Notes: generated by a model from the sequence alone, not told the origin. A stretch of DNA of 64,000 nucleotides from an uncultured bacterium (GCA_964463175.1 CAYXBJ010000178.1:52431-116430); one strand, 5' to 3'. Numbered from the stretch's first letter, positions 1,363 through 37,722 are shown. Translations and numbers: made by a program.

Positions 1363-1379
1363 GCGCGCCTCCCGCGACC

Positions 1380-2252: not shown

Positions 2253-2328
2253 AAGGACAGCGCGAGGCTCGGCCCGCTCAGGGACGGCGCGGCAGGGCGG
2301 TGAGGGGGCAGGAGCCGTCCAACCGAGC

Positions 2329-5764: not shown

Positions 5765-6028
5765 GCCGTCATTTCACGAGGAAGACGTAGAAGCCGCTCA
5801 CCTGTTTCGTACTCGCCCTTCCGCCGATGCGGTCCATCCCACCGCGCGACGCTCAGCCCGAATGGACTGAGCTCAAACCACGTCTCGATCGCCCCGCGAA
5901 TGGCCACGCACTCCATTCGCCCGAAGGGCTTGAAGAGCATTGGCGATGCCGTCCCCCAGTGTATCGCCGGAAGTCTTGAGCGCCCACGGCGCGTCTAGGA
6001 CTGGGATCCGCTGGCGCTTCGTCACAGC

Positions 6029-8436: not shown

Positions 8437-8484
8437 CCGCGCTCGGTGGCCTGACCGACCGTCATCGGCACGAATCCCGGCGCA

Positions 8485-9822: not shown

Positions 9823-9954
9823 GGGCAACCCCACTCCCCGTCCTCCGCGCGATGCGCCGCCGGCCGGTCTCACGCGAGCGCGCACATCAGGCCTCATCGG
9901 CCCGTCGGGGCGTGCTGACGGCAGCAGTCCCATGCCCCCTCCACCACCATTCCG

Positions 9955-13673: not shown

Positions 13674-13686
13674 CGCGCTACCAACC

Positions 13687-14898: not shown

Positions 14899-15096
14899 CG
14901 ACGAAGTCCCTCCGCGGAGCTCACCGCCCCGAACCCATTCGCGTGCAACACGGACCTTCGAAGCGCGGGGCGGCGCGTCGGGGCGAAATGCCCGGCCAGG
15001 GCATGCGCCAGCTCGATGGTCCCGGTATTCCAGCCGATCGCGGGAGCACCACACCGGAACAGGGTCGGAATGCGAGGCATAGCCCGTCTGAATCTC

Positions 15097-17636: not shown

Positions 17637-17646
17637 GTCCCGGATC

Positions 17647-18750: not shown

Positions 18751-18801
18751 GACGTGATTGCACGCGAGCGCCGCGACGGCGCTCTAGGTGCGCCGTGGAG
18801 C

Positions 18802-20268: not shown

Positions 20269-20280
20269 TGCGCTTCTCTC

Positions 20281-21459
20281 CTACCGGCGCAGTCGCGCGA
20301 GCGTCTCTCGGATCGTGTCGATCACGTACTCGACCGACTCCGCCGGCATGTCCGGATAGATGGGCAGCGAGATGGCTCCCGCGAACTGCCGCTCGGCCGA
20401 CGGGAACATCCCCGGCTGGTACCCGAAGCTCCGCTGGTAGGCGGGGTGCAGGTTCAGCGGCATGAAGTGGACGCTTGTGCCGATCCCCCGCGCCGCGAGC
20501 TCCCGCATCACGTCGTCGCGCCCCTTCGACAGGGCGTCCAGGTTCAGGCTGAGGACGTACAGGTGCCATGCGTGCACGTCACCCGACGGCTCGCTCGGAA
20601 TGCGGCAGGTGTCCAGGCCGTGGAGGCCCTCGCTGTAGCGCAAGGCGATCTCCCGACGCTGTTTTTGGAAGGCCTCGGCCTTGCGGAGCTGATGGAGGCC
20701 GATGGCCGCCGCGATGTCCGACAGGTTGTACTTGAACCCGTGGTCCTCGACCTCGTAATACCAGTTCCCCCGGTCACCGTAGCGATTCCAGGCGTCGGCG
20801 TTCAGACCGAACAGGCGCATGCGGCGAATCCGATCGGCCAGGTCATCGCGGTTGGTGGTGACCATGCCGCCCTCGCCGGTCGTGATCGTCTTCGTCGCGT
20901 AGAAGCTGAACCCCGCCACGTCGCCGAGGGTCCCGACCATCCGGCCCCGATTGGTCGCGGGAAACGCGTGCGCCGCATCCTCGATGACCGCGATGCCGTG
21001 CTGGCGCGCGAGTGCCATGATCGGATCCATGTCGCAGGCCCGTCCGGCAAAGTGCACGACGATGATCGCCTTGGTCCGATCGGTCACGTGGGACGCGAGG
21101 GTTCCGGCATCCACGTTCGGGTTCTCGAGACTGGAGTCGGCCAGCACCGGGCGCGCGCCGAGGTGAATCGCCGTGGCGGCCGTCGCGGTGAAGGTGTAGG
21201 CCGGGACGATGACCTCGTCGCCAGCGCCGACACCGACCGCCTCGAGGCCCAAGTGCAGAGCGCCGGTGCACGAGCTCACCGCGATGGCATGCTGGGCGCC
21301 GGTGAATACGGCGAACTCGCGCTCGAACCGCCGGGCCCGGGGGCCGGTCGTTAGCCAGCCAGATCTCAAGGTGTCCACGACCTCTCCGATCTCCTCTTCG
21401 CCGATCGAAGGAACGTGGTAGGGAACCTTCTTGATGGGCCGCGGCTCAATGCTGTCCAT
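20281..21459 (-). CDS. DegT/DnrJ/EryC1/StrS-family PLP-dependent sugar aminotransferase
   Basis: ...FSFYATKTITTGEGGMV (PLP-Lys region), 392 aa. Confidence 0.85.
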   Translation of the reverse strand: MDSIEPRPIKKVPYHVPSIGEEEIGEVVDTLRSGWLTTGPRARRFEREFAVFTGAQHAIAVSSCTGALHLGLEAVGVGAGDEVIVPAYTFTATAATAIHLGARPVLADSSLENPNVDAGTLASHVTDRTKAIIVVHFAGRACDMDPIMALARQHGIAVIEDAAHAFPATNRGRMVGTLGDVAGFSFYATKTITTGEGGMVTTNRDDLADRIRRMRLFGLNADAWNRYGDRGNWYYEVEDHGFKYNLSDIAAAIGLHQLRKAEAFQKQRREIALRYSEGLHGLDTCRIPSEPSGDVHAWHLYVLSLNLDALSKGRDDVMRELAARGIGTSVHFMPLNLHPAYQRSFGYQPGMFPSAERQFAGAISLPIYPDMPAESVEYVIDTIRETLARLRR

Positions 21460-23191
21460 TTGTTCGCTCCGCGTTTTCGCTCGCCAGCGGTAATCTGATT
21501 TCCAGGAGCGCCCCTCCTTGCTCGCAGGACATCAGCGAGGTCGTGCCCCCGTGTGCATTGACCACACTCCGAACGACCGACAGGCCGAGCCCCAGGTGCG
21601 GCCGGCTCTTCGTCGACACCAGCGGCGCGAAGACATCGTCTCGCGCGGCAAGCCCCAGTCCGCTGTCCTGCACGGAAATCAAGGCATGTCCGTTCTCGCG
21701 AGCCGTCCGCACGCGGATCTCTCCGCCTTCCGGCATGGCCTCGACGGCGTTCTCGATCGCATGGGCGAGAGCGGCCACGAAGTCAGGCATGGTGCGAGCC
21801 AGCAGAGGCTCGCTCATCAGCTCGAGACTGAGCCGGACCGGCGCGCGGCTCAGGTCGGTTCCCGCCTCCAGGCTGGCCCGGGCCATACTCATGACTCGCC
21901 GAACCACCTTGTTGAGGTCGGCCTCCCCGGTCCCGCCGGAGGTCTCGGACTCGTCCCCGCGAAGCGCACCGAGCACCGAACTGACCTCGCGCGTCACGGC
22001 CCCGGCCAGCGTGCTTGCTTCCAGCGAGCTCATTGGGGTGGACCCGTTCTCCCTCGTCAGGAGCTCCTGGATCCGGACTGGGAGGAGCGCCTCCACGAGT
22101 CGGTCGATCCCCTTGAGCGCCTCGCGCAGGGCAACGCGCTGGCTGGACGACAGCGTCTCGTAGGCTGCACGCCCGACGCATGCCCGCTCGTGCACGTGGT
22201 CCTCCAGCGTCGAGACCATCGCCAGCGCGTGGGTCGCAATCTCGGCCCGGTGCCGGAACGCCTCCAGCTCCCAATCGCTGAGCTGTAGCTCGTCCTCCAC
22301 GTACAGGCAGATGAGCCCCAGCAGTCGCCCCGCGCTCATGAGCGGCAGGGTGATCCGGGTCCACCGCCCGCTGTCCGGTATCGCCGCCCACAGGGGGTCC
22401 AGCGGATCGTCCGCGACGCTCGCGACTCCGATCGGCCACTCGGACTGCGTCCGGCCCCGGGCCAGCGCCAGCATCATCTGGGCCGCGTCCACGGAGGTCA
22501 CCGGCTCGGGGAATCGGTAGCGCGCAGCGACCGCGATGTCCCCCGCCGGAGTCACACGGAACAGGAGACCGCGCACTGACATCCCGAGCCACCCGCTCGC
22601 CTCCGAGGCGCACATGGCCAGGACGTCTTCGATGGTCCGGGCGTCGAACGTCTCGCGCACCATCCGGAGGAGAGACGCCATGGCCCGGACCTGCTGGCGC
22701 AGCCGCCCCGCCTCCCAGGCCTGAGCGGAGCTGGCGATGAACTCGTCGAGGATCGCGCGGCATCGCTCGCGCTTCTCGGCGCTCAAGGGCTCCCGCGCTG
22801 CGGAACGCATCTCGCCCAGCCCCAGAACGCCGACCGTCTCGTCGCCGTGCCGGATGGGCAGGAGGTAGATGGCGCGCAGGTCCGGAACCATCGACTGGGC
22901 CGCCTCGTCCTGGATGGCGACCTGATCGGCCGCTTCGAGATCGACGAACACCTCTTCGTGGCCCTGGAACGCCGCCCGGTGCGAGGGCGCCGTCGCGAGC
23001 GCCACCCGCGACCACAACGGGAGCGGCACGTCGAGGGGTCGCGCCGTCCCGACCGCCTTGACCGTGAGGCAGAAGGTCGGACGGTCCCACAGGGCGACGC
23101 TGGCAATGGTGACCGGCAGGCTGTCGGCGAGCTTCTGGGCAAGCTGCTGAGCCGCGGTCTCGAGGCCGAGCATGGTTCCGTTTCCGTTCAT
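21446..23191 (-). CDS. Cytoplasmic GAF-domain sensor histidine kinase
   Basis: C-terminal HATPase_c (ENAVEAMPEGGEIRV...DSGLGL...GLGLSVV). Upstream GAF-like regions; no TM segments. Start taken at MNGNGTMLG; the first ~124 codons of the track ORF overlap the upstream gene. Confidence 0.65.
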   Translation of the reverse strand: MNGNGTMLGLETAAQQLAQKLADSLPVTIASVALWDRPTFCLTVKAVGTARPLDVPLPLWSRVALATAPSHRAAFQGHEEVFVDLEAADQVAIQDEAAQSMVPDLRAIYLLPIRHGDETVGVLGLGEMRSAAREPLSAEKRERCRAILDEFIASSAQAWEAGRLRQQVRAMASLLRMVRETFDARTIEDVLAMCASEASGWLGMSVRGLLFRVTPAGDIAVAARYRFPEPVTSVDAAQMMLALARGRTQSEWPIGVASVADDPLDPLWAAIPDSGRWTRITLPLMSAGRLLGLICLYVEDELQLSDWELEAFRHRAEIATHALAMVSTLEDHVHERACVGRAAYETLSSSQRVALREALKGIDRLVEALLPVRIQELLTRENGSTPMSSLEASTLAGAVTREVSSVLGALRGDESETSGGTGEADLNKVVRRVMSMARASLEAGTDLSRAPVRLSLELMSEPLLARTMPDFVAALAHAIENAVEAMPEGGEIRVRTARENGHALISVQDSGLGLAARDDVFAPLVSTKSRPHLGLGLSVVRSVVNAHGGTTSLMSCEQGGALLEIRLPLASENAERTNGQH

Positions 23192-23204
23192 CGGAGTTGG
23201 CCCG

Positions 23205-26123
23205 TCACGATCCCGTGCCGGCCCCGACGGTGGCCAGGCCACGCAGGGCCGCAGCGTTGTCGGGCTGGCGCCGGAGCACGGTGCGATACTGCTGGATCGC
23301 CCGGTCGGCAAGTCCCGCCCGCGCGTACAGGTCGCCGAGCTCCGCGCCAAGGTCGCCGTCCGCCGGGCGGAGCCGCTGCGCCACTTCGTAGCTCGCGATC
23401 GCTTCCCGCAGGTAGCCGGCGCCCCGAAGGGCCTGCGCCGCCGCCCGGTGGAGGCGCCAATCGTCGCCGCCGACCGCGGCCGCCGTCCGGTACTCCTGGA
23501 ACGCCTCGGCGGCCTGCCCCCGCTGCTCGAGCAGCCGGCCGAGCTCGAGATGGACCCAGCCATCGTTCGGCTTGTCGCGAAGGATCTGGCGCCACAGCGT
23601 CACCGCCCGCTCCCACTGGCCGCGCTGGACAAACAGGGCGGCGAGCTCTCCCTGGACACGGTGGCGCCGGCTGGCCGGGCCAGGACCGGACTCGGCCAGA
23701 GTCGCAGCGGTGGCGAGCGCGATGTCCGCCTCCATCCCCTGGTTCGTCTGGGCGTAAACCATGGCGAGGACGGCGAAGACCTCCGCCTCTCCCGGCGCCA
23801 GCACCAGAGTGCGGCGGGCCTGTTCGAGCGCGGCCAGCGGGTCTTTCCGATTGATCAGCACCCGCGCGTACGCGAGTCGCGCCTCCACCTCGGTGGCGGG
23901 CTCCTGCGCGAGCGCGATCGCCTGCTCGAACGCGGCGGTGGCGCCCTGCGTTCGCCCGCGGCGCTCCAGATACGATCCGAGCCCGAGGAGCAGGTCGAAC
24001 TTCTGCGGCACGGTCGCCAGGATGAGCTGGTCGTCCACCTGCCGGGCCAGCAAGTCCTCGACAACGCCGTCGAGGAAGCCGGGGTTCAAGGCCACGGCCC
24101 GGCCGAACGCCGCGCTCGCCACCTCGTAGCGGTCCGGTTGACCGACGGCATTCAGCGCGAACGACCCCATGCGCCGGTGTCGATTCGCGTTCTGGGGGTC
24201 CCAGCGGACGGCGTCCTGGAAGTGCGCCAGGGCTTCGGGGAACACGCTCCGCTCCGACCCGACGGTCCCCGCGAGCCGCGGGTCAATCGGGGTCTGGATC
24301 GGGCTCTTCTGGACGACCTGGCGAACATTCTCCAGGGTTCCGAGGAACCAGCCGAACCGCTCGTGCGTGTCGGCCGCCCGCGGCCGGAGCTGGAGGCTCG
24401 TCCGATACGCCTCGTACGCGTCCGCGAGCAGGGGCTGCGCCGCCTCGAACTTCGCTGCGACGGACAGGTCGGACAGGCGCGCGCCGCTCGCGGTGATCCC
24501 GAGCGTCCAGGCGCGGCGCCCGAGCTCGGCGGAGACGTCGGCGAAGTCCGACCAGGCGGCCGGGTTCGAGCGATCCCAGGCAACGGCCGTCCGGAGGCCG
24601 GCGCGCGCCCGGATCAGATCCCCCTGCGGCGTCCCATCCCTTCGCCAGACACTGGTCACCGTGGAGGCGGCACTCGCTCGTTGCCATCCGGCGACGCTCG
24701 GGGGCGCCAGCAGCACCGTGGCGGCGACCACCGCCACCAGGGCGACGAAGACACTCACCGTGCTCCATCCCGGATTCAGGCGCCAGCCCCACCGCTCCAG
24801 GCCAACACGCTCCCCTTCACCATCCCGGTGGAGGGTCGCCGCCAGCGGCAGCAGCCCGGCAATCAGCGCCAGCATCACCGCATTGCCTGGCATGTGGAGC
24901 CCGAAGTCCACGACACTGTGAACCGTGACCGCGACGATCGCGCCAGTGCCTCCCAGCAGGAGCCCGCGGACGAACGGATCGCGGCGACCGCGCCACGCCT
25001 GCACCAGGGATGTCAGCAGCGCCACCAGTGCCCATCCGGCGATCAGCAGGCCCACCACTCCCGTCTCGGCCAGCAGCTGCAGGAAGTCGTTGTGCGCGTA
25101 GTCCACGAACTTGTCGGCCGGAACCTCGACTGGTTGATAGGGCGCGAAGCCATCCCGGAACGCGCCGAGCCCGATCCCGGCGACCGGCGCATCACCGACG
25201 ACTCGCAGCGTCGTCGCCCAGATTCTCGAGCGCAGATCCGACGCGGGCTCCCGCAGCACCTCGGAGAATCGGTCGGTCACCGCCCCGAGTCCGACCCAGC
25301 CGGCGTAGGTGACAACGCCGAGCGCGAGCGCCAGGATGGCCAGCGTGACGTGGTTCCCGGATCGAGCCGTGCGCGCCATGGCGAGCATGGCCAGCACGCC
25401 GACCACGGTACTCACCACACCGCCGCGGGAGAGCGTGAGGGCGAGCGCGAGCGCCAGGACAAGCACGCCACCGACCAGGAACACTCGCACCGTCAGACCC
25501 TCGAGGGCCCCCGCGGGAGGCGCCGACTCGGACCGCCCCGCGTGTCCGCGGCGCGAATGGGCGGAGGGACGCAAGAGCAGTCCCAGGGCCATGAACAGGG
25601 CGATGGAGAAGTAGAGGGCCTGGTGGTTCGGGTTGACGAAGGTGCTCGTCAGGCGGCCCGACGGGCTGGCCGCGAGCCCGCTCCAACCGATCTTGAGCTG
25701 TCCAGCAAACCCCACCCCGGCCAGGACGACCGCCCAGCCAACCAGCGCGAGCGTCAGCCGGGTGAGGCGCGCGCGGGTCATCGGGAGGCCGGTGACCACG
25801 AGGAACAGACCGAAGTAGGCGAAGTAAAGCCGCGCGCTCTCCCAGGTTGCGTACCGGTTGATCGAGCCGCCGGGCGAGAAGACCTGCCAGCCGACGAGGA
25901 CGGCCATCGCCACCGCCGGTCCCAGCAGTGGAGTCCGGCGAATCTCGAGCTCTCCGGACACCGCCATCCGAACGATCCACAGGGCGAGCAGCAGCGCCAC
26001 GCCGCCCTCGATGCCCGCCTGGGCCCAGGGCACGACGGCACCGAGGGGCAGCGGCGCGAACATCAGGAGCGCCACCACTCCGACCTCGATGACGGCGTCG
26101 ATAACCCGGGCGAGTCCAGTCAC
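23205..26123 (-). CDS. O-antigen ligase/polymerase-family (Wzy_C domain) membrane protein fused to a long C-terminal TPR-repeat domain
   Basis: N-terminal ~430 aa polytopic with Wzy_C hallmarks (LALTLSRGG, YAHNDFLQLLAETGVVGL). C-terminal ~450 aa of TPR-like repeats (...AYARVLINRKDPLAALEQARRTLVLAPGEAE..., ...LGDLYARAGLADRAIQQYRTVLRRQPDNAAALRGLA). Confidence 0.75.
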   Translation of the reverse strand: MTGLARVIDAVIEVGVVALLMFAPLPLGAVVPWAQAGIEGGVALLLALWIVRMAVSGELEIRRTPLLGPAVAMAVLVGWQVFSPGGSINRYATWESARLYFAYFGLFLVVTGLPMTRARLTRLTLALVGWAVVLAGVGFAGQLKIGWSGLAASPSGRLTSTFVNPNHQALYFSIALFMALGLLLRPSAHSRRGHAGRSESAPPAGALEGLTVRVFLVGGVLVLALALALTLSRGGVVSTVVGVLAMLAMARTARSGNHVTLAILALALGVVTYAGWVGLGAVTDRFSEVLREPASDLRSRIWATTLRVVGDAPVAGIGLGAFRDGFAPYQPVEVPADKFVDYAHNDFLQLLAETGVVGLLIAGWALVALLTSLVQAWRGRRDPFVRGLLLGGTGAIVAVTVHSVVDFGLHMPGNAVMLALIAGLLPLAATLHRDGEGERVGLERWGWRLNPGWSTVSVFVALVAVVAATVLLAPPSVAGWQRASAASTVTSVWRRDGTPQGDLIRARAGLRTAVAWDRSNPAAWSDFADVSAELGRRAWTLGITASGARLSDLSVAAKFEAAQPLLADAYEAYRTSLQLRPRAADTHERFGWFLGTLENVRQVVQKSPIQTPIDPRLAGTVGSERSVFPEALAHFQDAVRWDPQNANRHRRMGSFALNAVGQPDRYEVASAAFGRAVALNPGFLDGVVEDLLARQVDDQLILATVPQKFDLLLGLGSYLERRGRTQGATAAFEQAIALAQEPATEVEARLAYARVLINRKDPLAALEQARRTLVLAPGEAEVFAVLAMVYAQTNQGMEADIALATAATLAESGPGPASRRHRVQGELAALFVQRGQWERAVTLWRQILRDKPNDGWVHLELGRLLEQRGQAAEAFQEYRTAAAVGGDDWRLHRAAAQALRGAGYLREAIASYEVAQRLRPADGDLGAELGDLYARAGLADRAIQQYRTVLRRQPDNAAALRGLATVGAGTGS

Positions 26124-26881
26124 TTGGAGCGTGCCTCTCCCGACGAGCGGCCCTTGACCGGGTCATAAGCGCTTCGCGTGTAATACCCGTCGTACGTGTC
26201 GTAGTACCGCTTGGAGTAGCCGTGCGCCGCGGCATCGAACCGGTTGAGCACGGCGCCGATGATCCGTCCCCTCACCGCCTCGATGCGCTCCTTTGCGCGC
26301 CGCAGCGCCACCTCTGGTGTCTGCCCGCTGTCCACGACCAGCAGCACGCCGTCGACGTGCGGCGCGAGCGCGCACGCATCGCTCGTTGCGAGCGCCGGCG
26401 GGGAATCGAGGATCACGACGTCGAAGCGCTCCGCCACCGTGTTCAGGAACTCGTGCATCCGTCGGGAGCCCAGGAGCTCGGCGGGGTTCGGAGGCGTCGG
26501 ACCACTCACCACCAGGGAGAGATTCGGGACGGCGCTCTTGAGGAGCACCGCGGCCAGGAGCGAGTCGCCGACGAGGTACGACGACAGCCCCGGCGTGGTG
26601 GGCTGCCGGAACAGACTGTGGACGCTGGGGCGCCGGAGGTCCGCCTCGACCAGGAGGACCGAGCGTTCCCCCTGCGCCATGCTGATCGCCAGATTGGCCG
26701 CGGTCGTCGACTTGCCCTCACCGGGGCCGGCGCTCGTCACCAGGATGCGCCGGAGCGGGACGTCGGGATTCGCGTAATGGAGGTTGTTCCGGAGCACCCG
26801 GAATGCCTCGGCGGCGAACGACTGAGGGTCATTCAGCGTCACGAGGCTCGAGGGCGAGGACGAGCTCTTCAACGGGGTCAT
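26120..26881 (-). CDS. Bacterial tyrosine autokinase, cytoplasmic subunit (CpsD/CapB-like BY-kinase)
   Basis: Walker A SAGPGEGKSTTAANLA, Walker A' VLLVEADLRRP, Walker B DVVILDSPP, C-terminal Tyr cluster YSKRYYDTYDGYYTRSAY. Confidence 0.85.
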   Translation of the reverse strand: MTPLKSSSSPSSLVTLNDPQSFAAEAFRVLRNNLHYANPDVPLRRILVTSAGPGEGKSTTAANLAISMAQGERSVLLVEADLRRPSVHSLFRQPTTPGLSSYLVGDSLLAAVLLKSAVPNLSLVVSGPTPPNPAELLGSRRMHEFLNTVAERFDVVILDSPPALATSDACALAPHVDGVLLVVDSGQTPEVALRRAKERIEAVRGRIIGAVLNRFDAAAHGYSKRYYDTYDGYYTRSAYDPVKGRSSGEARSK

Positions 26882-26895: not shown

Positions 26896-28254
26896 CTAGC
26901 TACGCGCTCGGGGGAGCATGGGAATCAGGGAGAACACGGGTACACCGAGCGCATGCTCCACCTGCTCGGGCGTGCGAACGCTGTCGTCCATGTATTCGAG
27001 GAAGAAGGCAGCGCCGAGGCCCACGATCAGCCCCATGAGCGCGCCGAGCGCCAGGTTCAGCGTCTTTCGCGGCTTGATGGGGGACGTGGGGACGATGGCC
27101 GCCTCCACGATCCGGATGTTGTTCGAGTCCAGACCCTGGCTGAGGCTCGTCTCCTTGAGGCGCTTCAGCAGCACGTCATACAGCTGCTGGTTCGAATCCG
27201 CCTCTCGCTTCAGGATCCCGTACTGGATCTCCTTCTTCCCGAGAGCCTGGGCCTCGTCGCGGTACTGGTTCACGGCCTGGAGCATCGCGTTCTCGCGCGC
27301 CTTGAGCGCGTTGTACTCGCTCTCCATGCTGAGCGAGAGCCGGCCCACCTCTTCGCGGATCTTCAGCTGGATCTCGTCGATCTGGGACTGGATCTTGACG
27401 ACCTCGGGGTGCTTCTCGCGGTATGTCTTGAGGAGCTTGGAGCGCTGAACCTCGAGCTCGACGAGCTGGCCCTTCAGCTTCTGGATCAACGGATTGTTGA
27501 TCACCATCGGCGAGGACTCCAGCAGCTCGGGCTGCGTCGAGGCGCGCTTGAGCTCGCCCAGGCGCGTCTCCATCTCGAGCCGCTTGGCCTTCGCCTCGAT
27601 GTACCCGCTGTTGAATTCGGCGAGCTTACGGACCCCCAGGCTTTGCTTCTCCTCGACCTGGACCAGCCCCGCCTGCTCGCGGTAACGCTGAAGCGCCAGC
27701 TCCGACTCGTTCACCTTGTTCTTGAGGTCGGAGACCTGCGCGGTGAGCCAGCTGAGGGCATCGCGCGCGGACGACAGCTTCAGCTCGAGATTCTGATGGA
27801 CGTACGTGGTCGCCAGGGTATTGGCGATCTCCGCCGCGAGCTTGGGGTCCTCGTCCTCGACACGGATCTCGATCAGGCGCGTGTTCCGGATCGGCTCGAC
27901 CGAGATCGCGCCGAGGAACGACGACGCCGGATCGGCCGCCAGGGCCAGCCCCGGCTTCTTCGTCTTGAGCTCGAGGGTATCGATCACCCGCTCGGCCACG
28001 GGCCGGCTCTTGACGATCTGGACCTGCGTCTCGAAGAACTCCGTGGATTCGGGCGCGATGCCCGCGGCGTCCTGGAAGTTCACCACCCGCGGCCCCTCAC
28101 GCTCGAGGAGCGCCTTGGTCGCCGCCCGGTAGACCGGACGCTGGAGATAGGTGCCGAGAGCCACCGTCGCGACGATCACGACGAAGCACGCGACGACCAG
28201 CCAGGCGTGCTTCCGCAGCACACGGATGTACTCACGCAGATGGACCTGTTCCAT
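26896..28254 (-). CDS. Polysaccharide co-polymerase (Wzz/GumC/CpsC-like PCP-2b, transmembrane subunit without kinase domain)
   Basis: N-terminal TM (LVVACFVVIVATVALGTYL), long coiled-coil periplasmic domain, C-terminal TM (LNLALGALMGLIVGLGAAFFL). Start may be the upstream M (28290). Confidence 0.8.
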   Translation of the reverse strand: MEQVHLREYIRVLRKHAWLVVACFVVIVATVALGTYLQRPVYRAATKALLEREGPRVVNFQDAAGIAPESTEFFETQVQIVKSRPVAERVIDTLELKTKKPGLALAADPASSFLGAISVEPIRNTRLIEIRVEDEDPKLAAEIANTLATTYVHQNLELKLSSARDALSWLTAQVSDLKNKVNESELALQRYREQAGLVQVEEKQSLGVRKLAEFNSGYIEAKAKRLEMETRLGELKRASTQPELLESSPMVINNPLIQKLKGQLVELEVQRSKLLKTYREKHPEVVKIQSQIDEIQLKIREEVGRLSLSMESEYNALKARENAMLQAVNQYRDEAQALGKKEIQYGILKREADSNQQLYDVLLKRLKETSLSQGLDSNNIRIVEAAIVPTSPIKPRKTLNLALGALMGLIVGLGAAFFLEYMDDSVRTPEQVEHALGVPVFSLIPMLPRARS

Positions 28255-28304
28255 GAAACCCTCACTCGACACGGTGTGTCCCGGCGGCATTGCGGCCCCC
28301 TAGC

Positions 28305-29450
28305 CTAGAAGTAGCTCTCCGGCACGACGACCACGTCGTTGGCCGTGAGCGGAATGTCCCTGTCCTTGCGGCCCCGCTTGATGACCTCGTTGAGATCCAC
28401 GACGATCGTTTCCTGGCGACCGTCGCGATAAGTCCGGATGATCTTCGTCCGGTTCGGGGCAGCCTTGTCGGTGAAGCCTCCCGCGAGCGCGACGCCCTCG
28501 ATGGCGGTCCCCGCCTGCTCGAGCTGGTAGGCGCCGGGCTTCTTCACCTCGCCCATGACGTAGAAGGTGTTCCCGGCCGGCACGAGGACCGTGTCCCCCT
28601 CCGCCAGCAGAAAGTCGCGGGCGCGTGGGTCGGCGCCGCTCAGATCGATCGGGATCGTCTCCTGGCTGCCGTCCGGCTGCTTCCTGAGCACCTTGGAGAC
28701 CGACGAGGCGGCCCGCTCCGAGAAGCCGCCGGCCAGCGTGATGGCCTCGAGTGCCGAGGTCTCCTTCTCCAGCACGAAGGCGCCGGGCTTCTTCACCTCG
28801 CCCATGACGTAGAAGCTCGTCTGCTTCGCGATGTAGACGGTGTCACCGTTCTCGAGGGGAAGGTTCTCCGAGCTGTCGCCGTCGAGGAGCTTCCGGAGAC
28901 TCACGCGAATCGTCGTGCTACCCGCCGCGCCCGGAGTCACGGGACCATCGGCCTTCGGGAGGCGAACGACCACCGCCTGGCGGCCCGCGAACTTGCTGGG
29001 GCCCCCCGCCTGGGACAGCACGTCCAGCAGCGTCGAGCGCCCGGTGAGGAAGTAGGTGCCGGGCTTGTCGGCCTCGCCCAGGACGAAGACCCGTTGCGAC
29101 CGGTACTCCTGGACCGACACGGTCACCTGGGGATCGACGAGGTAGTCCTTCCCGAGCTGCTGCTGGAGGCGGGTCTCCAACTCGGTCGGGGTCAGGCCTC
29201 CCGCCGCCACGTCTCCGATCAGAGGAAAGGGCATGCGTCCGTCCCCCGCAATGACCGACGTGCGGGCGAGGTCCTCATGTCCGTAGACCGTGATCTTCAG
29301 AATGTCCCCGGGTCCGATCCGGTAGTCCTGGCCCTTGGGGCTGGAGGCCTGAGCGCGTGCGGCGCCCGCCCCGAGTAGGAGCAGACCCAAGGCCAGCAGG
29401 AGGAGGCCGTAGAGGGGGAGCCTCGATCGGTGGGCGAGCTTCATCATCAT
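28305..29450 (-). CDS. Outer-membrane polysaccharide export protein (OPX/Wza family), short form with two SLBB-type repeats; no C-terminal OM helix
   Basis: Signal peptide. Poly_export-like N-domain (DYRIGPGDILKITVYGHEDL), two GDT..FYVMGEVKKPGAY repeats. Ends ...VVVPESYF. Confidence 0.85.
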   Translation of the reverse strand: MMMKLAHRSRLPLYGLLLLALGLLLLGAGAARAQASSPKGQDYRIGPGDILKITVYGHEDLARTSVIAGDGRMPFPLIGDVAAGGLTPTELETRLQQQLGKDYLVDPQVTVSVQEYRSQRVFVLGEADKPGTYFLTGRSTLLDVLSQAGGPSKFAGRQAVVVRLPKADGPVTPGAAGSTTIRVSLRKLLDGDSSENLPLENGDTVYIAKQTSFYVMGEVKKPGAFVLEKETSALEAITLAGGFSERAASSVSKVLRKQPDGSQETIPIDLSGADPRARDFLLAEGDTVLVPAGNTFYVMGEVKKPGAYQLEQAGTAIEGVALAGGFTDKAAPNRTKIIRTYRDGRQETIVVDLNEVIKRGRKDRDIPLTANDVVVVPESYF

Positions 29451-29590
29451 CTGGAGTTGTTCCTATGCTTTCAGACGCCGGCAGGAGCAGCCGTCCGAGG
29501 TCGCGATAAGGCAGAAGTCCCTGTTGGGCACGATTTAGGTACTACGAGCAACTCTCGTGCCTAGAGTCAGGGAGGAGCAGGCGGGCTAGG

Positions 29591-31222
29591 CTAGAAGTAG
29601 CTCTCCGGGACGACGACGACGTCGTTGGCGGCCAGCGGTAAGTCCTTGTCTTTCCTACCGCGCTTGATCACCTCGTTGAGGTCCACGACGAATGTCTCCT
29701 GGCGGCCATCAGGCAGCGTACGGATCACTTTGGTGCGATTTGGCGCTGCCTTGTCCGTGAATCCGCCCGCCATGGCGATCGCTTGGATCGCGGTCGTGGT
29801 CTGATCAAGCTGATAGGCTCCTGGCTTCTTCACTTCGCCCATCACGTAGAAGGTGTTCCCGACGGGCACCAGGAGAATATCTCCATCCTTGAGGAGGAAT
29901 TCCCTTGCCTTTGGATCCGCCCCGGAGAGATCCAGGATATGGATCTCCTCCGTCCCGGAGGCAAGTCGGCGCGTGAGCTTCACCTGGGTATGGAGGGCCT
30001 TCTCGGTGAACCCCCCGGCGAGCGTCAGCGCCCCCACCGCCGTCGTGGCCGGATCGAGCGGGTAAGCGCCCGGCTTCCGCACCTCACCCAGGACGTAGAA
30101 CGCGTTGCCGGACGGGACCAGGAGCGTGTCGCCGTCGCGGAGTGGATAGTCGCGGCCGGCACGATCCGACCCCGAGAGGTCCAGGACGACGGTCTGCTCC
30201 TCCCCGGAGGCTCCCCGGCGAATCAGCTTGACCTGGCTCTGACCCGCCTTCTCGGTGAACCCCCCGGCGATCGTCACCGCCCCGAAGGCGGTCGTCGACT
30301 TCTCGAGGGGATAGGCTCCGGGCTTCCGCACCTCGCCCGACACGAAGAACGTGTTGCCGCGCGGGATGAGCAGGGTGTCACCCTCGGCGATTTGCACGTC
30401 CCGGGCGCGCGGATCAGCCAGGTCGACATCGAGGCTCTCCTGACTGCCGTCCGCCCGCTTTCGCAGGATCTTGGCCCCGCTCGGCGCGGCCCGATCGGTG
30501 AAGCCGCCGGCGAGCGTCACCGCCTCGAGGGCGTTCGTCTCCTTGTCCATTGCGTAGGCGCCCTGGCGCAGAACCTCCCCCAGGACGAAGAACGAGGTCA
30601 GCTTCGGGACATAGACGGTGTCGCCGTTCTGGAGGAGGATGTTCTCGCCCGGCACGCCATCCAGCAGGCGTTTGAGATCGGCGCGGAACGCGACGCTGCC
30701 CGCCGCGCCCGGGGTCACAGGGCCATCGGACTGAGCCCCGCGAACGACCACGACTTGGCGCCCGGCGTTCTTGCCAGGCCCTCCGGCCTGGGACAGGACG
30801 TCTAGCAGCATTGTCTGGCCGGTCAGCGCGTAGGTCCCGGCCTTGTCCACCTCGCCCAGCACGAAGACGCGCTGGGAACGATACTCCGCCACGGTGACGG
30901 AGACCTGCGGGTTGACGAGATAGTCCTTCCCGAGGAGGTCCCGGAGGAGCGTCTCGATAGCACCCGGCGTGAGGCCGCCCACGCGAACATCGCCGATCAG
31001 CGGGAACTGGAACGAGCCGTCCCCCGAGACGACGACCTGCTTTGTCAGGTCGTCGTGCCCCCAGACGGTGATCTTCAGGACGTCCTTCGCCCCGACCTTG
31101 TACTCCGTCGGACCGCCGCTACCCGCAGCCTGGGCGGCAGCGGGACCCGCGGGAACGAGCAGGAGGGCAACGAGTAGGAGGGCGGTCATGGCCGCCGGAA
31201 ACCATCGCACACTTACACCCAT
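29591..31222 (-). CDS. OPX/Wza-family export protein, long paralog with four SLBB-type repeats; no C-terminal OM helix
   Basis: Signal peptide (MTALLLVALLLVPAGPAAAQA). EYKVGAKDVLKITVWGHDDL, then four GDT..(F/Y)V.GEV(R/K)KPGAY repeats. The last ~90 aa are near-identical to the short paralog. Start set at MGVSVRW (31220-31222); the track ORF's upstream 160 codons are not credible. Confidence 0.8.
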   Translation of the reverse strand: MGVSVRWFPAAMTALLLVALLLVPAGPAAAQAAGSGGPTEYKVGAKDVLKITVWGHDDLTKQVVVSGDGSFQFPLIGDVRVGGLTPGAIETLLRDLLGKDYLVNPQVSVTVAEYRSQRVFVLGEVDKAGTYALTGQTMLLDVLSQAGGPGKNAGRQVVVVRGAQSDGPVTPGAAGSVAFRADLKRLLDGVPGENILLQNGDTVYVPKLTSFFVLGEVLRQGAYAMDKETNALEAVTLAGGFTDRAAPSGAKILRKRADGSQESLDVDLADPRARDVQIAEGDTLLIPRGNTFFVSGEVRKPGAYPLEKSTTAFGAVTIAGGFTEKAGQSQVKLIRRGASGEEQTVVLDLSGSDRAGRDYPLRDGDTLLVPSGNAFYVLGEVRKPGAYPLDPATTAVGALTLAGGFTEKALHTQVKLTRRLASGTEEIHILDLSGADPKAREFLLKDGDILLVPVGNTFYVMGEVKKPGAYQLDQTTTAIQAIAMAGGFTDKAAPNRTKVIRTLPDGRQETFVVDLNEVIKRGRKDKDLPLAANDVVVVPESYF

Positions 31223-31269
31223 GGCGTGACCCTGGACAGCGCGAAACACCGGCAGACGTCGTGCGCGGC

Positions 31270-32463
31270 TCAGTAGGTCAGTATCACGCTCGCCTTGATG
31301 CGGTTGTCCGTGTAGCTGAACTCGTTGAAGTTCGAGTTCAGGTCCAGGTAGTTGTAGCCGATCTCGAACGCCAGCCACTTCTTCATCTGGTACTTGAGGC
31401 TCACCCCGGCCTCGAAGAACACGTCCTCGCGCTGGGCGGTCTTCGTCCCGACGGTGCTGTCCTCCGGATAGTCGTTGACGCCGCCGAGCCCTCTCACCCG
31501 GAGGACCAGCCGCTCGCTGAGGAAGTGCCGGACTTCGACACCAGCGTAGTTCGAGACGTAGTAGAGCTGTCCCTCGAACGTCGACTCGACGTTCGCTCGG
31601 CCACCGAAGACCCGGACCTCCGACGGCTCGCGGTACTTCCAGATGATGTTCCCCTCGACGATCAAGCCGTCCCAGTCCTTCACCAGCGGATTGTCGTAAT
31701 TCTTCCACTCCCAGCCCGCCTTGACGAGAAGCGTCGTCTTCGCGGTGACATCGCCCTTGAGACCGAGCCAGAACCGCCAGCCCTCGGAGTCGCGGACGGC
31801 GGCGGACGCGGCGTCATCGTAGCGAACCACCACGTAGTCGAGCTCGCCAAGGACCGACGTCTTCGGCAAGAAGCGATAGAAGAACGTTCCGGTCCCGGTG
31901 TAGTCTTGGCGGTTGAGATTCTCTTCGGGGGCATCGTAGTCGACGAGGAACCAGCGGAAGTTCGCGTCGAACGAATAGCGCTCCCGGAGGGTGTAGTTCG
32001 CTCCGGCGTCGAGCGTGTTCTCGGTCCGCTCGACAAGCTGCGTCAGCTCCGGCACCGGGAACCCGGCGAAGTCGTCGGTGATGATGAACCGATCGCTGAG
32101 CCGCAGCGAAAGATTCCAGGGAAAGTTGTACTGCCCATCGACCAGGGCGTTGTGGTGGACGGTGTTGAGATCGGTGTTGTCGGTGTACTCGAGGATGTCG
32201 GCGCGGTAGCCGATGCGCGCGGTGTAGTGGTTGCCCGGAAGCTCGATGAGGATACCCGGGCTGATGACCCAGATGAAATCCTGGATCTTGTCGGTGTTTG
32301 TGAGCAGGATGTTGTCGTCGTACTCGCCCGACAGCTCGAGCGACGTGAGTATCCGGAAGGGGCCGAGCTGGATGTTACCCTGGGCAGCCGCGGGCCCCGC
32401 CAGCCCCATGATCAGCAGCAGGGCGATTCCAACCGAGATCCCCGCAGCGCGCCCTCTCAACAT
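31270..32463 (-). CDS. Predicted outer-membrane beta-barrel protein (candidate OM partner of the helix-less OPX proteins)
   Basis: Signal peptide MLRGRAAGISVGIALLLIMGLAGPAAAQG. Alternating hydrophobic/aromatic beta-strand pattern throughout; aromatic C-terminus ...IKASVILTY. GC ~53-55%. Confidence 0.55.
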   Translation of the reverse strand: MLRGRAAGISVGIALLLIMGLAGPAAAQGNIQLGPFRILTSLELSGEYDDNILLTNTDKIQDFIWVISPGILIELPGNHYTARIGYRADILEYTDNTDLNTVHHNALVDGQYNFPWNLSLRLSDRFIITDDFAGFPVPELTQLVERTENTLDAGANYTLRERYSFDANFRWFLVDYDAPEENLNRQDYTGTGTFFYRFLPKTSVLGELDYVVVRYDDAASAAVRDSEGWRFWLGLKGDVTAKTTLLVKAGWEWKNYDNPLVKDWDGLIVEGNIIWKYREPSEVRVFGGRANVESTFEGQLYYVSNYAGVEVRHFLSERLVLRVRGLGGVNDYPEDSTVGTKTAQREDVFFEAGVSLKYQMKKWLAFEIGYNYLDLNSNFNEFSYTDNRIKASVILTY

Positions 32464-32559: not shown

Positions 32560-33132
32560 CTACTCGTTCCCGGTCGGGCTCGTCTGCTGCGAGATCCACC
32601 CCGGCAGGTTCGTCTGGAAATTCTCGGGCGGCAGGCCCCCGTAGGTCTCCACGAACTTGAGGATGGTGAACGTCCCCAGGGTCTGGAGGAACGGCACCGA
32701 CCCGCCCGACTGCGCGATCGGACCCGTCCCCGACATGCGGATGGTGATGTTGCCCGGATCGTCCCCGAGGGTGCGACCGACGATCTCGGCCTTGTTGGGC
32801 TCCACCACGATCACCCGGCCATTCGGCAAGAGGATCTCGACGCGTCCCTCGCTGCTCTCCACGAGGATGAGGTTCTTGGCCGAGGTGACCACTCGCGCCT
32901 CGCCGACGAGCGTCTTGACGACCAGCTTGCTCGCGTCCGGCTGGAAGGAGGTCTCGGCCGACGCGCCCTGTCCCAGCACCAACTCGAGACCGCCGAAGGA
33001 GGTCTTGCTAGGTCCGTTGATGATGCGCTTCTCGTCTTCCGCGGCCCAGGTGGCCGTGGCAGCAACCACGATCAGTGCGGCGAGCAATGCCGACAATGCC
33101 CTACGCGTCATATTCCCCTTCCCCCAATCCTC
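32560..33132 (-). CDS. Small secreted protein of unknown function (first gene downstream of the sigma-54 promoter)
   Basis: ATG 33130-33132 is preceded by GGGGAAGGGGAAT (strong Shine-Dalgarno). Signal peptide MTRRALSALLAALIVVAATATWA|AEDE. ~190 aa, no known motif. Confidence 0.6.
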   Translation of the reverse strand, partial: EDWGKGNMTRRALSALLAALIVVAATATWAAEDEKRIINGPSKTSFGGLELVLGQGASAETSFQPDASKLVVKTLVGEARVVTSAKNLILVESSEGRVEILLPNGRVIVVEPNKAEIVGRTLGDDPGNITIRMSGTGPIAQSGGSVPFLQTLGTFTILKFVETYGGLPPENFQTNLPGWISQQTSPTGNE

Positions 33133-33191: not shown

Positions 33192-33207
33192 GCAAGGTGA
33201 GTGCCAA
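33192..33207 (-). promoter_or_regulatory. Sigma-54 (RpoN) -24/-12 promoter directing transcription toward 33132 and the downstream OM/OPX genes
   Basis: Minus-strand sequence TTGGCACTCACCTTGCT matches TGGCAC-N5-TTGC exactly (GG and GC elements, correct spacing). It lies about 60 nt upstream of ATG 33132. Confidence 0.6.
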
Positions 33208-33400: not shown

Positions 33401-34831
33401 ATGGACCAACCGGTCGTTCTCATAATCCACGAAGACGCGGCTGTCCGGGCCCTGCTCGGGCGGATGCTGCCCTCCTTCGGGTACACGGTCCGGACCGTGA
33501 CATCCGGGGAAGAGGCTATCGACCAGCTCACCCAGGGGGATGTCACCGTCGCCCTCCTGGACCTGGACCTCCCCGGCATGTCGGGCGCCGACACCCTCCG
33601 CGCGATCCGGGCCATGTCCCCTGCTCCCGAAGTCGTGGTCACGTCCGCCCGGGGGACCGTGACGGCTGCCGCGGATGTCGCTCGCCACGGCGCCTTCGAC
33701 TTCGTCCCGCAGCCCTTCGACCTAAAGGACTTGAACCACGTCCTCCGCACGGCCCACGACCAGGCCGTCCGGCGACGCCAGGCGCTCCACCTCGAGGCCG
33801 CGCTCAAGGCCCACGACCCGTTCCCCGAGATCGTCGGCCGGAGCACGGGGATCAAGCGAGTGCTCGCTCTCGTCAACAAAGCCGCGCGGACGCTCTCCCC
33901 CGTCCTCATCCAGGGCGAGAGCGGCACGGGCAAGGAGCTGGTGGCCCGGGCGCTGCACGCCAACAGCCCTCGCGCGAACGCGCCCCTCACAATCGTCGAT
34001 TGCGGCGCCCTCCAGGACACCCTCCTCGAGAGCGAGCTCTTCGGTCACGAGCGCGGTGCGTTCACCGGTGCCCACGGGCTCAAGCACGGGCTCTTCGAGA
34101 CCGCCAACCAGGGCACTCTCTTCCTGGACGAAATAGGCGAGATGAGCCCGGCGACCCAGGTGAAGGTCCTGCGCGCGCTCCAGTCCGGGGAGTTCCGGCG
34201 GATCGGCTCGAACCGCCACATCAAGGCCGATATCCGGGTGATCGCCGCGACGAACAAGGAACTGAAGGACGAAGTCCAGCGCGGCCGCTTCCGGGAAGAT
34301 CTCTACTACCGGATCGCGGTCATCGAGATCTACATGCCCGCGCTCCGGGAGCGGACGGATGACATCCCGCTCTTGGTCGAGCACTTCCTGCGGATCAACG
34401 CCTACGGCGGGCGGGAGCGCCTGCACGTCACGCCGGACGCCATGACGAGCCTGGCGCGGTATGCGTGGCCGGGCAACATCCGCGAGCTGCGGAATGTCAT
34501 CGAGCGGCTGTCGGTCCTCGCGGACAGCCAGGTGCTCACGGTCGACGCCCTGCCGCCGGCCATCGTGAAGGCGTCCCAGGAGCCCACCGAGTCGGCGGGG
34601 CTCCCCCGGCCGGCGGACGCCGGCCGGACCGACGGCGGGGGCGACATGACGCTCGACGATGTGGAGCGGCACCACATCATGCGGACCCTCGAGCGCCACC
34701 GCTGGAACAAGAAGCGGGTCGCGGGCATCCTTGGCATCGACACCAAGACGCTGTACAACAAGCTGCGCCGCTACGGGGTCCCCATCGGCTCACGTGGTGA
34801 CGGCGATGCGGCCGCCAGTTCCTCTGCCTAG
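33401..34831 (+). CDS. Sigma-54-dependent transcriptional activator (NtrC/Fis family; receiver + AAA+ + HTH)
   Basis: Receiver domain (ALLDLDLPGMSG). AAA+ with Walker A GESGTGKELVARALH and GAFTGA motif (ERGAFTGA), ...DIRVIAATN. C-terminal Fis-type HTH (RWNKKRVAGILGIDTKTLYNKLRRYG). Confidence 0.85.
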   Translation: MDQPVVLIIHEDAAVRALLGRMLPSFGYTVRTVTSGEEAIDQLTQGDVTVALLDLDLPGMSGADTLRAIRAMSPAPEVVVTSARGTVTAAADVARHGAFDFVPQPFDLKDLNHVLRTAHDQAVRRRQALHLEAALKAHDPFPEIVGRSTGIKRVLALVNKAARTLSPVLIQGESGTGKELVARALHANSPRANAPLTIVDCGALQDTLLESELFGHERGAFTGAHGLKHGLFETANQGTLFLDEIGEMSPATQVKVLRALQSGEFRRIGSNRHIKADIRVIAATNKELKDEVQRGRFREDLYYRIAVIEIYMPALRERTDDIPLLVEHFLRINAYGGRERLHVTPDAMTSLARYAWPGNIRELRNVIERLSVLADSQVLTVDALPPAIVKASQEPTESAGLPRPADAGRTDGGGDMTLDDVERHHIMRTLERHRWNKKRVAGILGIDTKTLYNKLRRYGVPIGSRGDGDAAASSSA

Positions 34832-36502: not shown

Positions 36503-36506
36503 GGCG

Positions 36507-37697: not shown

Positions 37698-37722
37698 CGC
37701 GCCTCGGCCGCTCACCCGTCGG

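Follow-up and report, generated by a model that had tools for sequence, protein, structure and literature searches.

Organisation of the locus

The window analysed here is a 64-kb stretch of DNA from Candidatus Rokubacteria (Methylomirabilota), an uncultured soil bacterium. The export genes lie on the minus strand and begin with a conserved signal-peptide protein of 183 aa (32560..33111), which is followed by a beta-barrel protein (31270..32463), a long OPX protein (29591..31222), a short OPX protein (28305..29450), a polysaccharide co-polymerase (PCP; 26896..28290) with Wzz and GNVR matches and two transmembrane segments, a separate BY-type tyrosine autokinase (26120..26881; TIGR01007, 167.9 bits, over the cutoff) and a fusion protein conserved in related loci (23205..26123), whose Wzy_C (O-antigen ligase/polymerase-like) membrane domain is joined to a long TPR domain at the C-terminus. 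The remainder of the Wzx/Wzy cluster (454..23200, same strand) encodes a Bac_transf priming transferase (18802-20268), a Wzx flippase (15097-16512), a 9-TM protein (8485-9933), a GAF histidine kinase, a DegT aminotransferase, six GT4 glycosyltransferases, a polysaccharide deacetylase, a UDP-glucose dehydrogenase, an epimerase and a methyltransferase. The window as a whole contains two OPX genes and one gene each for barrel, PCP, BY-kinase and Wzx. In all related loci the 183-aa protein is encoded ahead of the barrel (49-88% identity); it gave no match in Pfam, NCBIfam or the PDB.

A sigma-54 -24/-12 element, P1 (TGGCAC-N5-TTGC; 33192..33206, minus strand), precedes the export operon, ~80 nt ahead of its first gene; it is a perfect consensus match and was present at the syntenic position in 10/10 related loci tested. 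A second element, P2 (AGGCACGAGAGTTGC; 29548..29562, minus strand), identified as a sigma-54 -24/-12-like sequence motif, lies in the 140 nt that separate the two OPX genes, where GGCACG-N4-TTGC(T) was kept in 10/10 loci and the flanks were not conserved. Twenty of the 22 occurrences of the element in 393 kb were located at P1 or P2. An NtrC-type sigma-54 enhancer-binding response regulator with full-length NtrC/AtoC-type matches is encoded divergently (33401..34831, plus strand); its position is conserved in related loci and it is likely to be the activator of P1 and P2.

The sequence-only reading had placed the barrel and OPX genes in the same operon. The shared strand and the 47-nt gap between the barrel gene and the long OPX gene downstream of it agree with this, but the conserved element between the OPX genes makes it an oversimplification, and with such elements both there and upstream of the operon the genes are probably not simply co-transcribed. 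No terminator-like site was found in the 140-nt inter-OPX spacer, therefore read-through from P1 is likely.

Two periplasmic OPX proteins

Class-3 OPX proteins are defined by an N-terminal Poly_export domain (PF02563) followed by one to seven SLBB domains (PF10531), they carry neither Wza_C (PF18412) nor GfcC (PF06251), and the chain stops after the last SLBB (Saidi et al. 2022). Both OPX proteins have this architecture. The long protein (543 aa, or 532 aa from the alternative start at 31189 in the JGI gene call) consists of a signal peptide, a Poly_export D1 domain (Pfam, E=7e-24), five SLBB stretches and a PESYF tail; the short protein (381 aa) consists of a signal peptide, D1 (E=2.8e-25), three SLBB stretches and the same tail. 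Neither gave a Pfam match to Wza_C or GfcC, the SLBB_2 match in the long protein extends to residue 538 of 543, and matches to EpsE, PEP-CTERM export and EpsY-type profiles were also obtained. Both translations terminate in ...NDVVVVPESYF*, and the earlier observation that both Wza-family proteins end in VVVPESYF after their last SLBB repeat was thus upheld by translation and Pfam. The common ending reflects paralogy rather than chance, as the two proteins are 60% identical overall and 84% identical in the last SLBB.

The long OPX as modelled by AF2 (pLDDT 86.9) finishes in a beta-strand (535-538) and has just two long helices, one being the signal peptide and the other that of D1; the C-terminus of the short OPX was judged by Pfam and by its 84%-identical last domain. 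The top Foldseek matches of the model were Wza and WzaB, and the best PDB sequence match was the Myxococcus xanthus Class-3 OPX WzaB (9n9a), with an alignment that reaches the final residue (DVVVVPESYF against DIVFVPESFF). The C-terminal PESYF aligns, position by position, with the porin-binding PESFF tail of WzaB. This aromatic tail (WzaB Ser202-Phe203-Phe204) is a Class-3 criterion (Mellouk et al. 2026), and removal of S202-F203-F204 from WzaB abolishes WzpB binding and secretion (PMC12819527). A truncated beta1-beta2 loop without the Tyr-ring gate of Wza is a further Class-3 trait (Mellouk et al. 2026), and the phmmer alignment has an 11-residue gap relative to Wza across AGQYRSASDTGNW, the region that holds the Tyr110 gating loop; the OPX here share the truncated loop.

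In PslD, an OPX of Pseudomonas aeruginosa, the C-terminus forms a barrel of parallel beta-strands (PMC13434223), an octamer to which a segment of ~34 aa (221-254) supplies a transmembrane beta-strand. Resemblance to PslD lies in the last SLBB (query 454-541 aligned to PslD 133-221 of 256); the OPX here end where the PslD transmembrane segment begins and so cannot form a PslD-type pore. Both proteins are wholly periplasmic stacks of D1 plus three or five SLBB rings, with no Wza alpha-helix, PslD beta-strand segment or Tyr-ring gating loop. The claim that neither has a C-terminal membrane-spanning helix accordingly stands, on Pfam, on the WzaB and PslD alignments and on the terminal strand of the long OPX model.

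No cysteine was found in or near the signal peptide of either OPX, making these ordinary signal peptides and not those of lipoproteins, and neither has kept the PCP-binding motif of WzaB, Arg106-Arg107, the position reading LVNPQV and LVDPQV. The absence of a lipoprotein signal peptide and of the Arg-Arg motif is not class-defining, since ~30% of Class-3 OPX have SPI signal peptides. WzaB oligomerisation depends on N-terminal lipidation (PMC12819527), so the OPX here may assemble differently.

The barrel and its relation to the two OPX

The signal-peptide protein upstream of the OPX genes had been proposed to be a barrel of 16-18 strands. AF2 gave 18 (pLDDT 89.9), with polar residues facing inward in alternation with outward hydrophobic residues and a C-terminus of ...VILTY, and the PF10082 (BBP2_2) match behind the signal peptide covers the full length (E=3e-36). 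The closest solved structure is AlgE. No plug, TPR or periplasmic domain is present, leaving an AlgE/PgaA-like plain barrel. A probable, indirect assignment to the Wzp/EpsX/VpsM (EpsL) type comes from PF10082 and from the JGI naming of homologues of ~74% identity as VpsM. Sequence membership of that type is set by the EpsX/ExoB/MXAN_1916 or KEGG VpsM (K20920) profiles; the KEGG VpsM group is one of the two barrel profiles that defined the composite system. Helix-less OPX are encoded no more than a few genes away, in the same polysaccharide cluster, and the protein is proposed to be the exit pore. In a published survey, OPX of ≤280 aa are the partners of 93% of such barrels, which makes the long OPX proteins here atypical partners.

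It is highly improbable that the barrel instead anchors capsule in the manner of Wzi, or acts as a general porin, while the OPX reach the surface by another route. The OPX possess no segment able to cross the membrane, and in the AF2 model the mature barrel chain begins ~3-8 residues ahead of the first strand and lacks the N-terminal helical plug of Wzi. The protein also belongs to PF10082 with relatives named VpsM, shows synteny with the OPX genes at every locus, and is of a type shown to be required for export by experiments on EpsX, WzpB and VpsM.

The order barrel, long OPX, short OPX was found again in eleven further distinct related loci, and in a twelfth (L014; barrel 45% identical) both OPX genes are kept ~4 kb apart. 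The longer order of small ORF, barrel, long OPX, short OPX, PCP, kinase and Wzy-TPR was found in L007-L009, L011-L013, L015 and L020-L022, with barrel identity down to ~53% among loci with the full gene order. In the co-occurrence check proposed by the sequence-only reading, helix-less OPX and barrel occurred together in every full-length related locus examined, and that reading's description of two OPX paralogs beside one barrel holds as gene content, there being a single barrel in the window and the same arrangement in related loci. Both paralogs ended in PES[F/Y/L]F in 9/9 loci of the long form whose reading frame is intact.

Long and short OPX sequences formed separate groups with parallel branching (long monophyletic, short paraphyletic, with midpoint rooting), which indicates one old duplication. 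Across the clade, the two paralogs, the fixed difference of two SLBB and the order of the genes are all retained, and both copies are under purifying selection (dN/dS 0.07-0.37 for both). Conservation in both copies peaks in the barrel-facing C-terminal domain (~81% between orthologs, 78-79% between paralogs), and D1 and SLBB1 fall below it (65-73%).

Taken as a whole, the locus very probably specifies a Class-3 OPX/beta-barrel ('Wzp'-type) composite outer-membrane translocon of a sigma-54-controlled Wzx/Wzy pathway, in which both OPX would serve as alternative conduits using the same PCP and barrel. Interaction, oligomeric state and export are computational predictions; from the conserved WzaB-like tail in both paralogs we infer that both may dock on the single barrel. 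Wzx would flip the repeat units, and the PCP/BY-kinase assembly would house their polymerisation at the inner membrane. The polymer would then enter an oligomeric OPX ring stack docked via D1 on the PCP, whose aromatic C-terminal tail would meet the periplasmic rim of the barrel, and would leave the cell through the barrel. Each paralog would form its own homo-oligomeric conduit on the same PCP and the same barrel, the short one with ~4 rings (roughly 120 Å) and the long one with ~6 (roughly 180 Å).

That the two OPX serve different polymers or partners, one local and the other with a PCP, barrel or pathway elsewhere or under other conditions, is unlikely. Such a division would suit the separate conserved sigma-54 elements of the two OPX genes, the detachment of the short OPX gene from the cluster in L014 and the presence, besides Wzy_C-TPR, of the unassigned 9-TM protein, which could be another polymerase. 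Against this, the window holds only one PCP, kinase, Wzx and barrel, the OPX genes are adjacent in 11/12 further related loci, and the domain facing the barrel is as well conserved in one OPX as in the other. Paralogs from the same genome were also slightly more alike (D1, 69 against 66%; SLBB1, 68 against 65%), which fits shared partners.

A single conduit built from both OPX, either as a mixed hetero-oligomeric ring or as a serial stack of barrel, long OPX, short OPX and PCP, is less probable still. The serial order would fit the grouping of the long OPX with the barrel (47-nt gap, P1 unit) and the tight coupling of the short OPX to the PCP (14 nt from stop to start, P2 unit), and both OPX are always kept together. 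However, both retain the PCP-facing D1 and the barrel-binding tail, which are needless for the lower member of a stack, and ten rings (~300 Å) plus the PCP would exceed a periplasm of roughly 230 Å, the figure from the PslD-PslE complex. In a mixed ring, protomers of four and six domains cannot keep both ends in register. Nothing in the results separates alternative conduits from mixed or stacked assemblies.

Under the alternative-conduit reading, the elements would define partly separate units, P1 for the small ORF, barrel and long OPX and P2 for the short OPX, PCP, kinase and Wzy, and such units would let the cell alter the periplasmic reach or stoichiometry of the conduit. We tentatively suggest, as a possibility rather than an expectation, a dual-adaptor translocon in which a monomeric 18-stranded barrel and one PCP are joined by two non-lipidated OPX conduits of four and six rings under separate sigma-54 promoters, the adaptors being swapped or mixed. 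If this were true, swapping or mixing of adaptors would let the cell tune the periplasmic reach, gating or throughput of one export machine, a form of regulation without earlier description in any OPX system.

Comparison with known export systems

The proposed match to a described OPX/beta-barrel export mode is borne out by the Class-3 OPX and Wzp features present. This kind of exporter, a periplasmic OPX docked to a separate outer-membrane barrel, is already known (EpsY/EpsX, VpsN/VpsM; published 2022, mechanism 2026). What is new is that two OPX of unequal length are kept beside one barrel, an arrangement without earlier description, and the extent of the novelty is modest. To it belong the recurrence of this gene order in related loci, the age of the duplication and the selection on both copies, the strong conservation of the C-terminal domain, the sigma-54 element in the inter-OPX spacer and the non-lipoprotein signal peptides.

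The locus resembles the M. xanthus translocons (EpsY/EpsX = WzaX/WzpX, WzaB/WzpB and ExoA/ExoB; PMC9601211, PMC9603273, PMC12819527) in its periplasmic-only OPX without Wza_C, the truncated Tyr-ring loop, the PES-aromatic-Phe tail aligned to the WzpB-binding tail of WzaB, the adjacent 18-stranded barrel with AlgE as closest solved structure, and a Wzx/Wzy pathway with PCP and BY-kinase. M. xanthus, in contrast, has one D1D2 protein of ~200 aa in place of two paralogs, one of 381 aa with 3 SLBB and one of 543 aa with 5, and its OPX carry lipoprotein rather than ordinary signal peptides. The tail is Tyr-Phe here and Phe-Phe in WzaB, the Arg-Arg PCP-binding motif of WzaB is absent here, and the present locus has putative sigma-54 promoters, one of them between the OPX genes, and belongs to a different phylum (Rokubacteria).

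Vibrio cholerae VpsN/VpsM and the PF10082/EpsL/TIGR03016 barrels of XrtA/XrtB (PEP-CTERM) loci share the full-length PF10082 barrel, with JGI-named VpsM homologues; VpsN is a single short OPX, whereas two are present here. There is also a resemblance to components of PEP-CTERM loci in the PCP, the kinase and the sigma-54 response regulator, and both OPX exceed the TIGR03027 cutoff (198.8 and 191.2 against 180). An XrtA/PEP-CTERM exopolysaccharide locus is characterised by an exosortase together with a cutoff-passing EpsL/TIGR03016 barrel, PCP, kinase and PrsR regulator. This identity was rejected, as the OPX alone pass; the barrel (68.6 against 90.85), PCP (173.9 against 278.85), kinase (150.5 against 230.65) and regulator (322 against 502.6) fall below the curated NCBIfam cutoffs, and the 64-kb window yielded no exosortase gene.

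Escherichia coli Wza, a Class-1 OPX, shares the D1 and SLBB folds (Foldseek E ~6e-21, 28-29% identity over ~276 alignment columns). A Class-1 assignment was rejected on the absence of the outer-membrane-spanning D4 amphipathic helix (Pfam, alignment, AF2 of the long OPX); unlike Wza, the OPX here also lack the Tyr110 gating loop and lipidation, have more SLBB rings and need a separate barrel. The barrel differs from the synthase-dependent porins AlgE, PgaA, BcsC and PelB in having no TPR or periplasmic domain and in belonging to a Wzx/Wzy-dependent pathway, in which the TPR domain is fused to the Wzy_C membrane protein instead of to the barrel.

Gene content of the cluster and its surroundings

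The OPX and barrel genes lie in a polysaccharide gene cluster, which forms one long run on the (-) strand from 33111 to ~454. At the head of the cluster and first in transcription order is a 183-aa signal-peptide protein (32560–33111, -), followed by the 397-aa barrel (31270–32463, -), the long OPX protein of 543 aa (29591–31222, -), the short OPX protein of 381 aa (28305–29450, -), a Wzz/GNVR polysaccharide co-polymerase (PCP; 26896–28290, -), a BY-type tyrosine kinase encoded as a separate protein (26120–26881, -) and a 972-aa fusion of a Wzy_C membrane domain with TPR repeats (23205–26123, -). The rest of the cluster, 3' of this head, encodes a GAF histidine kinase, a DegT aminotransferase, a Bac_transf priming transferase, a Wzx flippase, six GT4 glycosyltransferases, a polysaccharide deacetylase, a 9-TM protein, a UDP-glucose dehydrogenase, an epimerase and a methyltransferase. 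On this gene content the cluster was assigned to the Wzx/Wzy-dependent pathway. A tblastn search of the 64-kb window with the head proteins detected neither a further barrel nor another OPX pair, PCP or kinase; as a statement of gene content, the sequence-only reading of two OPX paralogs beside one barrel holds. Upstream of the cluster and divergent from it are an NtrC-type sigma-54 response regulator (33401–34831), a receiver-only regulator and a weak match to low-molecular-weight phosphotyrosine phosphatase. Barrel relatives in the genome collection were from MAGs carrying the label Candidatus Rokubacteria or Methylomirabilota, which is consistent with the 65–75% G+C content of the window; identical copies are present on several contigs from JGI soil metagenomes. 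Identification as a PEP-CTERM/exosortase locus was not supported by profile scores or by an exosortase search of the window.

Several neighbouring genes have features of their own. The 183-aa protein was always the first gene ahead of the barrel in related loci (49–88% identity) and generated no Pfam, NCBIfam or PDB match; it may be an unrecognised accessory part of the translocon. In the Wzy_C-TPR protein a 10-TM domain (O-antigen ligase/polymerase-like) is joined to a periplasmic TPR region of ~500 aa, a fusion kept across the clade. TPR domains of synthase-dependent systems bridge to AlgE-, PgaA- or BcsC-type barrels, whereas here the TPR region sits on an inner-membrane protein and the AlgE-like barrel has none. 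A 482-aa protein with at least nine predicted transmembrane segments and no family match (8485–9933, -) could be the true Wzy polymerase, leaving the Wzy_C-TPR protein another role. A block at 35804–42685 (-), beside the regulators, comprises a MacB-type ABC exporter (FtsX/MacB_PCD permease and ATPase) and four ketoacyl-synthase genes; gene calls on the identical contigs add an acyl carrier protein. Several relatives have the block in synteny with the export cluster, and its product may be a lipid or polyketide-like compound linked to the polysaccharide.

C-termini and class of the OPX proteins

The sequence-only reading held that both OPX proteins end in VVVPESYF after the last SLBB repeat and lack an outer-membrane helix, and both points were borne out. 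Each translation ends in NDVVVVPESYF, and Pfam assigned Poly_export and five SLBB domains to the long protein and Poly_export and three to the short protein, with no Wza_C or GfcC match in either. The last SLBB_2 match of the long protein extends to residue 538 of 543. The long protein was the only one of the two modelled (AF2, 48 sequences, pLDDT 86.9); its model ends in a beta-strand (535–538), long helices are confined to the signal peptide and the Poly_export domain (D1), and no membrane-spanning helix was predicted at the C-terminus. Foldseek placed the model on Wza D1–D3 and on WzaB, a Myxococcus xanthus OPX protein. The best solved-structure sequence match of the long protein was also to WzaB (crystal structure 9n9a), in an alignment that reaches the final residue (DVVVVPESYF against DIVFVPESFF). 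WzaB without Ser202-Phe203-Phe204 neither binds the WzpB porin in vitro nor supports secretion in vivo (PMC12819527). Alignment with E. coli Wza leaves an 11-residue gap at the Tyr110 gating loop, and loss of a loop of this type is a stated Class-3 trait (Mellouk et al., 2026).

Insertion of the OPX proteins into the membrane by themselves was considered in two forms. A Wza-like route was ruled out by the missing Wza_C match, the end of the chain after the last SLBB unit and the model of the long protein. PslD crosses the membrane via a C-terminal beta-strand segment, residues 221–254 (PMC13434223); the window OPX sequence aligns to PslD 133–221 and then stops, and this route was also ruled out, because the chain ends where the PslD membrane segment starts. 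The WzaB tail match, the missing Tyr110 loop and the lack of a membrane segment are among the grounds on which the window proteins are filed as Class-3 OPX proteins with a Wzp/VpsM-type barrel. The match to a described OPX/beta-barrel export mode, drawn in the sequence-only reading, is supported.

Divergence of the two paralogs and their sigma-54 elements

The domain order is D1-S1-S2-S3-S4-S5 in the long protein and D1-S1-S2-S3 in the short protein, S denoting SLBB units. The first units of the two proteins match at 69%, the second at 62% and long S5 with short S3 at 84%, while long S3 is similar to long S4 (64%). The long form thus equals the short form enlarged by two internal SLBB units. 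The gene order from small ORF through barrel, long OPX, short OPX, PCP and kinase to Wzy-TPR recurred in related loci (L007, L008, L009, L011, L012, L013, L015, L020, L021 and L022), in which barrel identity falls to ~53%. In a further locus, L014 (barrel 45% identical), both OPX genes are kept ~4 kb apart, as judged from tblastn coordinates. The short form always has three SLBB units and the long form five, or six in L022.

In a neighbour-joining tree of D1-S1-S2 the long sequences group as a single clade, and branching is parallel in the long and short sets, the short set being paraphyletic under midpoint rooting. The long clade and the parallel branching indicate one duplication, before these lineages split. 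Ortholog dN/dS was 0.07–0.37 for both paralogs (rough values, as dS is near saturation), and one paralog being a decaying duplicate was rejected on these values. In both paralogs conservation is highest in the C-terminal domain, with identities of 81% between orthologs, 79% between paralogs of the same genome and 78% between paralogs of different genomes. Gene conversion would account for such near-identical domains, but same-genome paralogs are no more alike than cross-genome paralogs and are less alike than orthologs; it was rejected, and the similarity is attributed, from these comparisons, to shared purifying selection. The tail is PES[F/Y/L]F in both paralogs wherever the reading frame is intact. 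Taken together, the tree, dN/dS, C-terminal conservation and tail provide indirect evidence that both paralogs are functional and have the same partner at the outer-membrane end.

Some related assemblies have irregular genes. P0165 (929 aa, L023 7001–9790) looks like the long and short OPX genes joined by gene calling on an error-prone assembly, the long OPX of L021 (6068–7585) has an aberrant C-terminus, and fragmented PCP and Wzy genes occur among L023, L021 and L009. Frameshift errors in the long-read MAGs are the probable cause, and P0165 and the L021 C-terminus were left out as evidence.

Two sigma-54 -24/-12 elements, a point absent from the sequence-only reading, are associated with the head of the cluster. 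P1 is a perfect element, TGGCAC-N5-TTGC (33192–33206, -), ~80 nt upstream of the small ORF, and P2 is a one-mismatch copy, AGGCACGAGAGTTGC (29548–29562, -), within the 140-nt spacer between the OPX genes. The pattern is not significant in the window alone (three matches against 2.7 expected), and P1 and P2 are supported instead by their conservation between loci. GGCA[CT]-N5-TTGC occurred 22 times in ten related loci (within L007–L021; 393 kb, both strands counted), 20 of these exactly at the syntenic position of P1 or P2 on the coding strand, in flanking sequence that is unconserved. No terminator-like site was found in the spacer between the OPX genes, and the short OPX, PCP, kinase and Wzy genes overlap or have gaps of 14 nt or less. 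Two transcription units are likely from this layout: P1 would serve the small ORF, barrel and long OPX, with read-through, and P2 the short OPX, PCP, kinase, Wzy and onward. Both are presumably driven by the divergent NtrC-type activator (33401–34831).

Proposed assembly and comparison with known systems

OPX protomers form ring stacks (Wza/Wzc, WzaB/WzpB/WzcB, EpsY/EpsX), in which D1 contacts the PCP, the last SLBB unit and aromatic tail contact the barrel rim and the polymer exits via the barrel. The analysis establishes which parts are present, how they fold, that the OPX proteins lack a membrane segment, that their tail is of the WzaB type and how far the locus is conserved. Each paralog would probably build its own conduit on one common PCP and barrel. 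At ~30 Å per ring, a value based on WzaB D1+D2 (~62 Å) and Wza (~100 Å), the short conduit would reach ~120 Å and the long ~180 Å. The paralogs might instead be combined in mixed rings or a serial stack; this is less likely, because each paralog retains its two conserved ends and the lengths argue against it. Compact and extended states of PCP periplasmic domains have both been reported, and one Wzc octamer has been observed with two Wza translocons; separate conduits of unequal reach on one PCP are therefore conceivable, though speculative.

Class-3 OPX/porin systems are the commonest OPX type, and their mechanism is known from one model organism with a short, lipidated, single-copy OPX protein. 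The composite translocon was published in 2022, in two papers defining an OPX protein without the Wza helix paired with an adjacent 18-stranded barrel (PMC9601211, PMC9603273), and the mechanism followed in 2026. The headline claim is thus not new, and the gain here is incremental, because the core system was already published. Literature searches, which were incomplete and are weak evidence of novelty, found no precedent for tandem or paired OPX genes or for Rokubacteria exopolysaccharide export, and no conserved pair of unequal Class-3 paralogs beside one barrel, lack of lipidation in such a pair or internal sigma-54 promoter between OPX genes. In L019 (6403–10370), a distant metagenomic locus, multi-SLBB OPX genes in tandem (484 and 789 aa; 32% identical to the long OPX) immediately precede genes for GspC, a GspD secretin and a GspE ATPase; no barrel was visible in the stretch retrieved. 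Given this distant pair, tandem OPX genes may be more widespread than the Rokubacteria clade. T2SS secretins have been linked to slime polysaccharide secretion in a 2025 paper (PMC12475490).

Saidi et al. define Class-3 OPX proteins as Poly_export-SLBB(1–7) without Wza_C or GfcC. In the study by Schwabe et al. the closest structural homolog of EpsX was AlgE, and one of the two barrel profiles was the KEGG VpsM group. JGI gives the name VpsM to homologs that share ~74% identity with the window barrel. The estimated lumen charge is approximately neutral (25 K/R against 24 D/E) and uninformative on the polymer. In a published survey 93% of barrel-coupled OPX proteins were 280 aa or less, whereas both window proteins are much longer. 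WzaB requires lipidation for oligomerisation (PMC12819527); unlike WzaB, neither window protein has a cysteine in or near the signal peptide, and they are therefore not lipoproteins. The Arg-Arg PCP-binding motif of WzaB is replaced by VN and VD. The locus is the first concrete view of exopolysaccharide export and sigma-54 control in the uncultured soil phylum Rokubacteria, and the lineage is a natural contrast, with paralogs that share PCP- and barrel-facing ends, differ in SLBB ring number and have no lipid anchor. If both dock on one barrel, assembly would not depend on lipidation in every system, the PES-aromatic-Phe tail would act generally as a porin-docking signal and conduit length would be adjustable.
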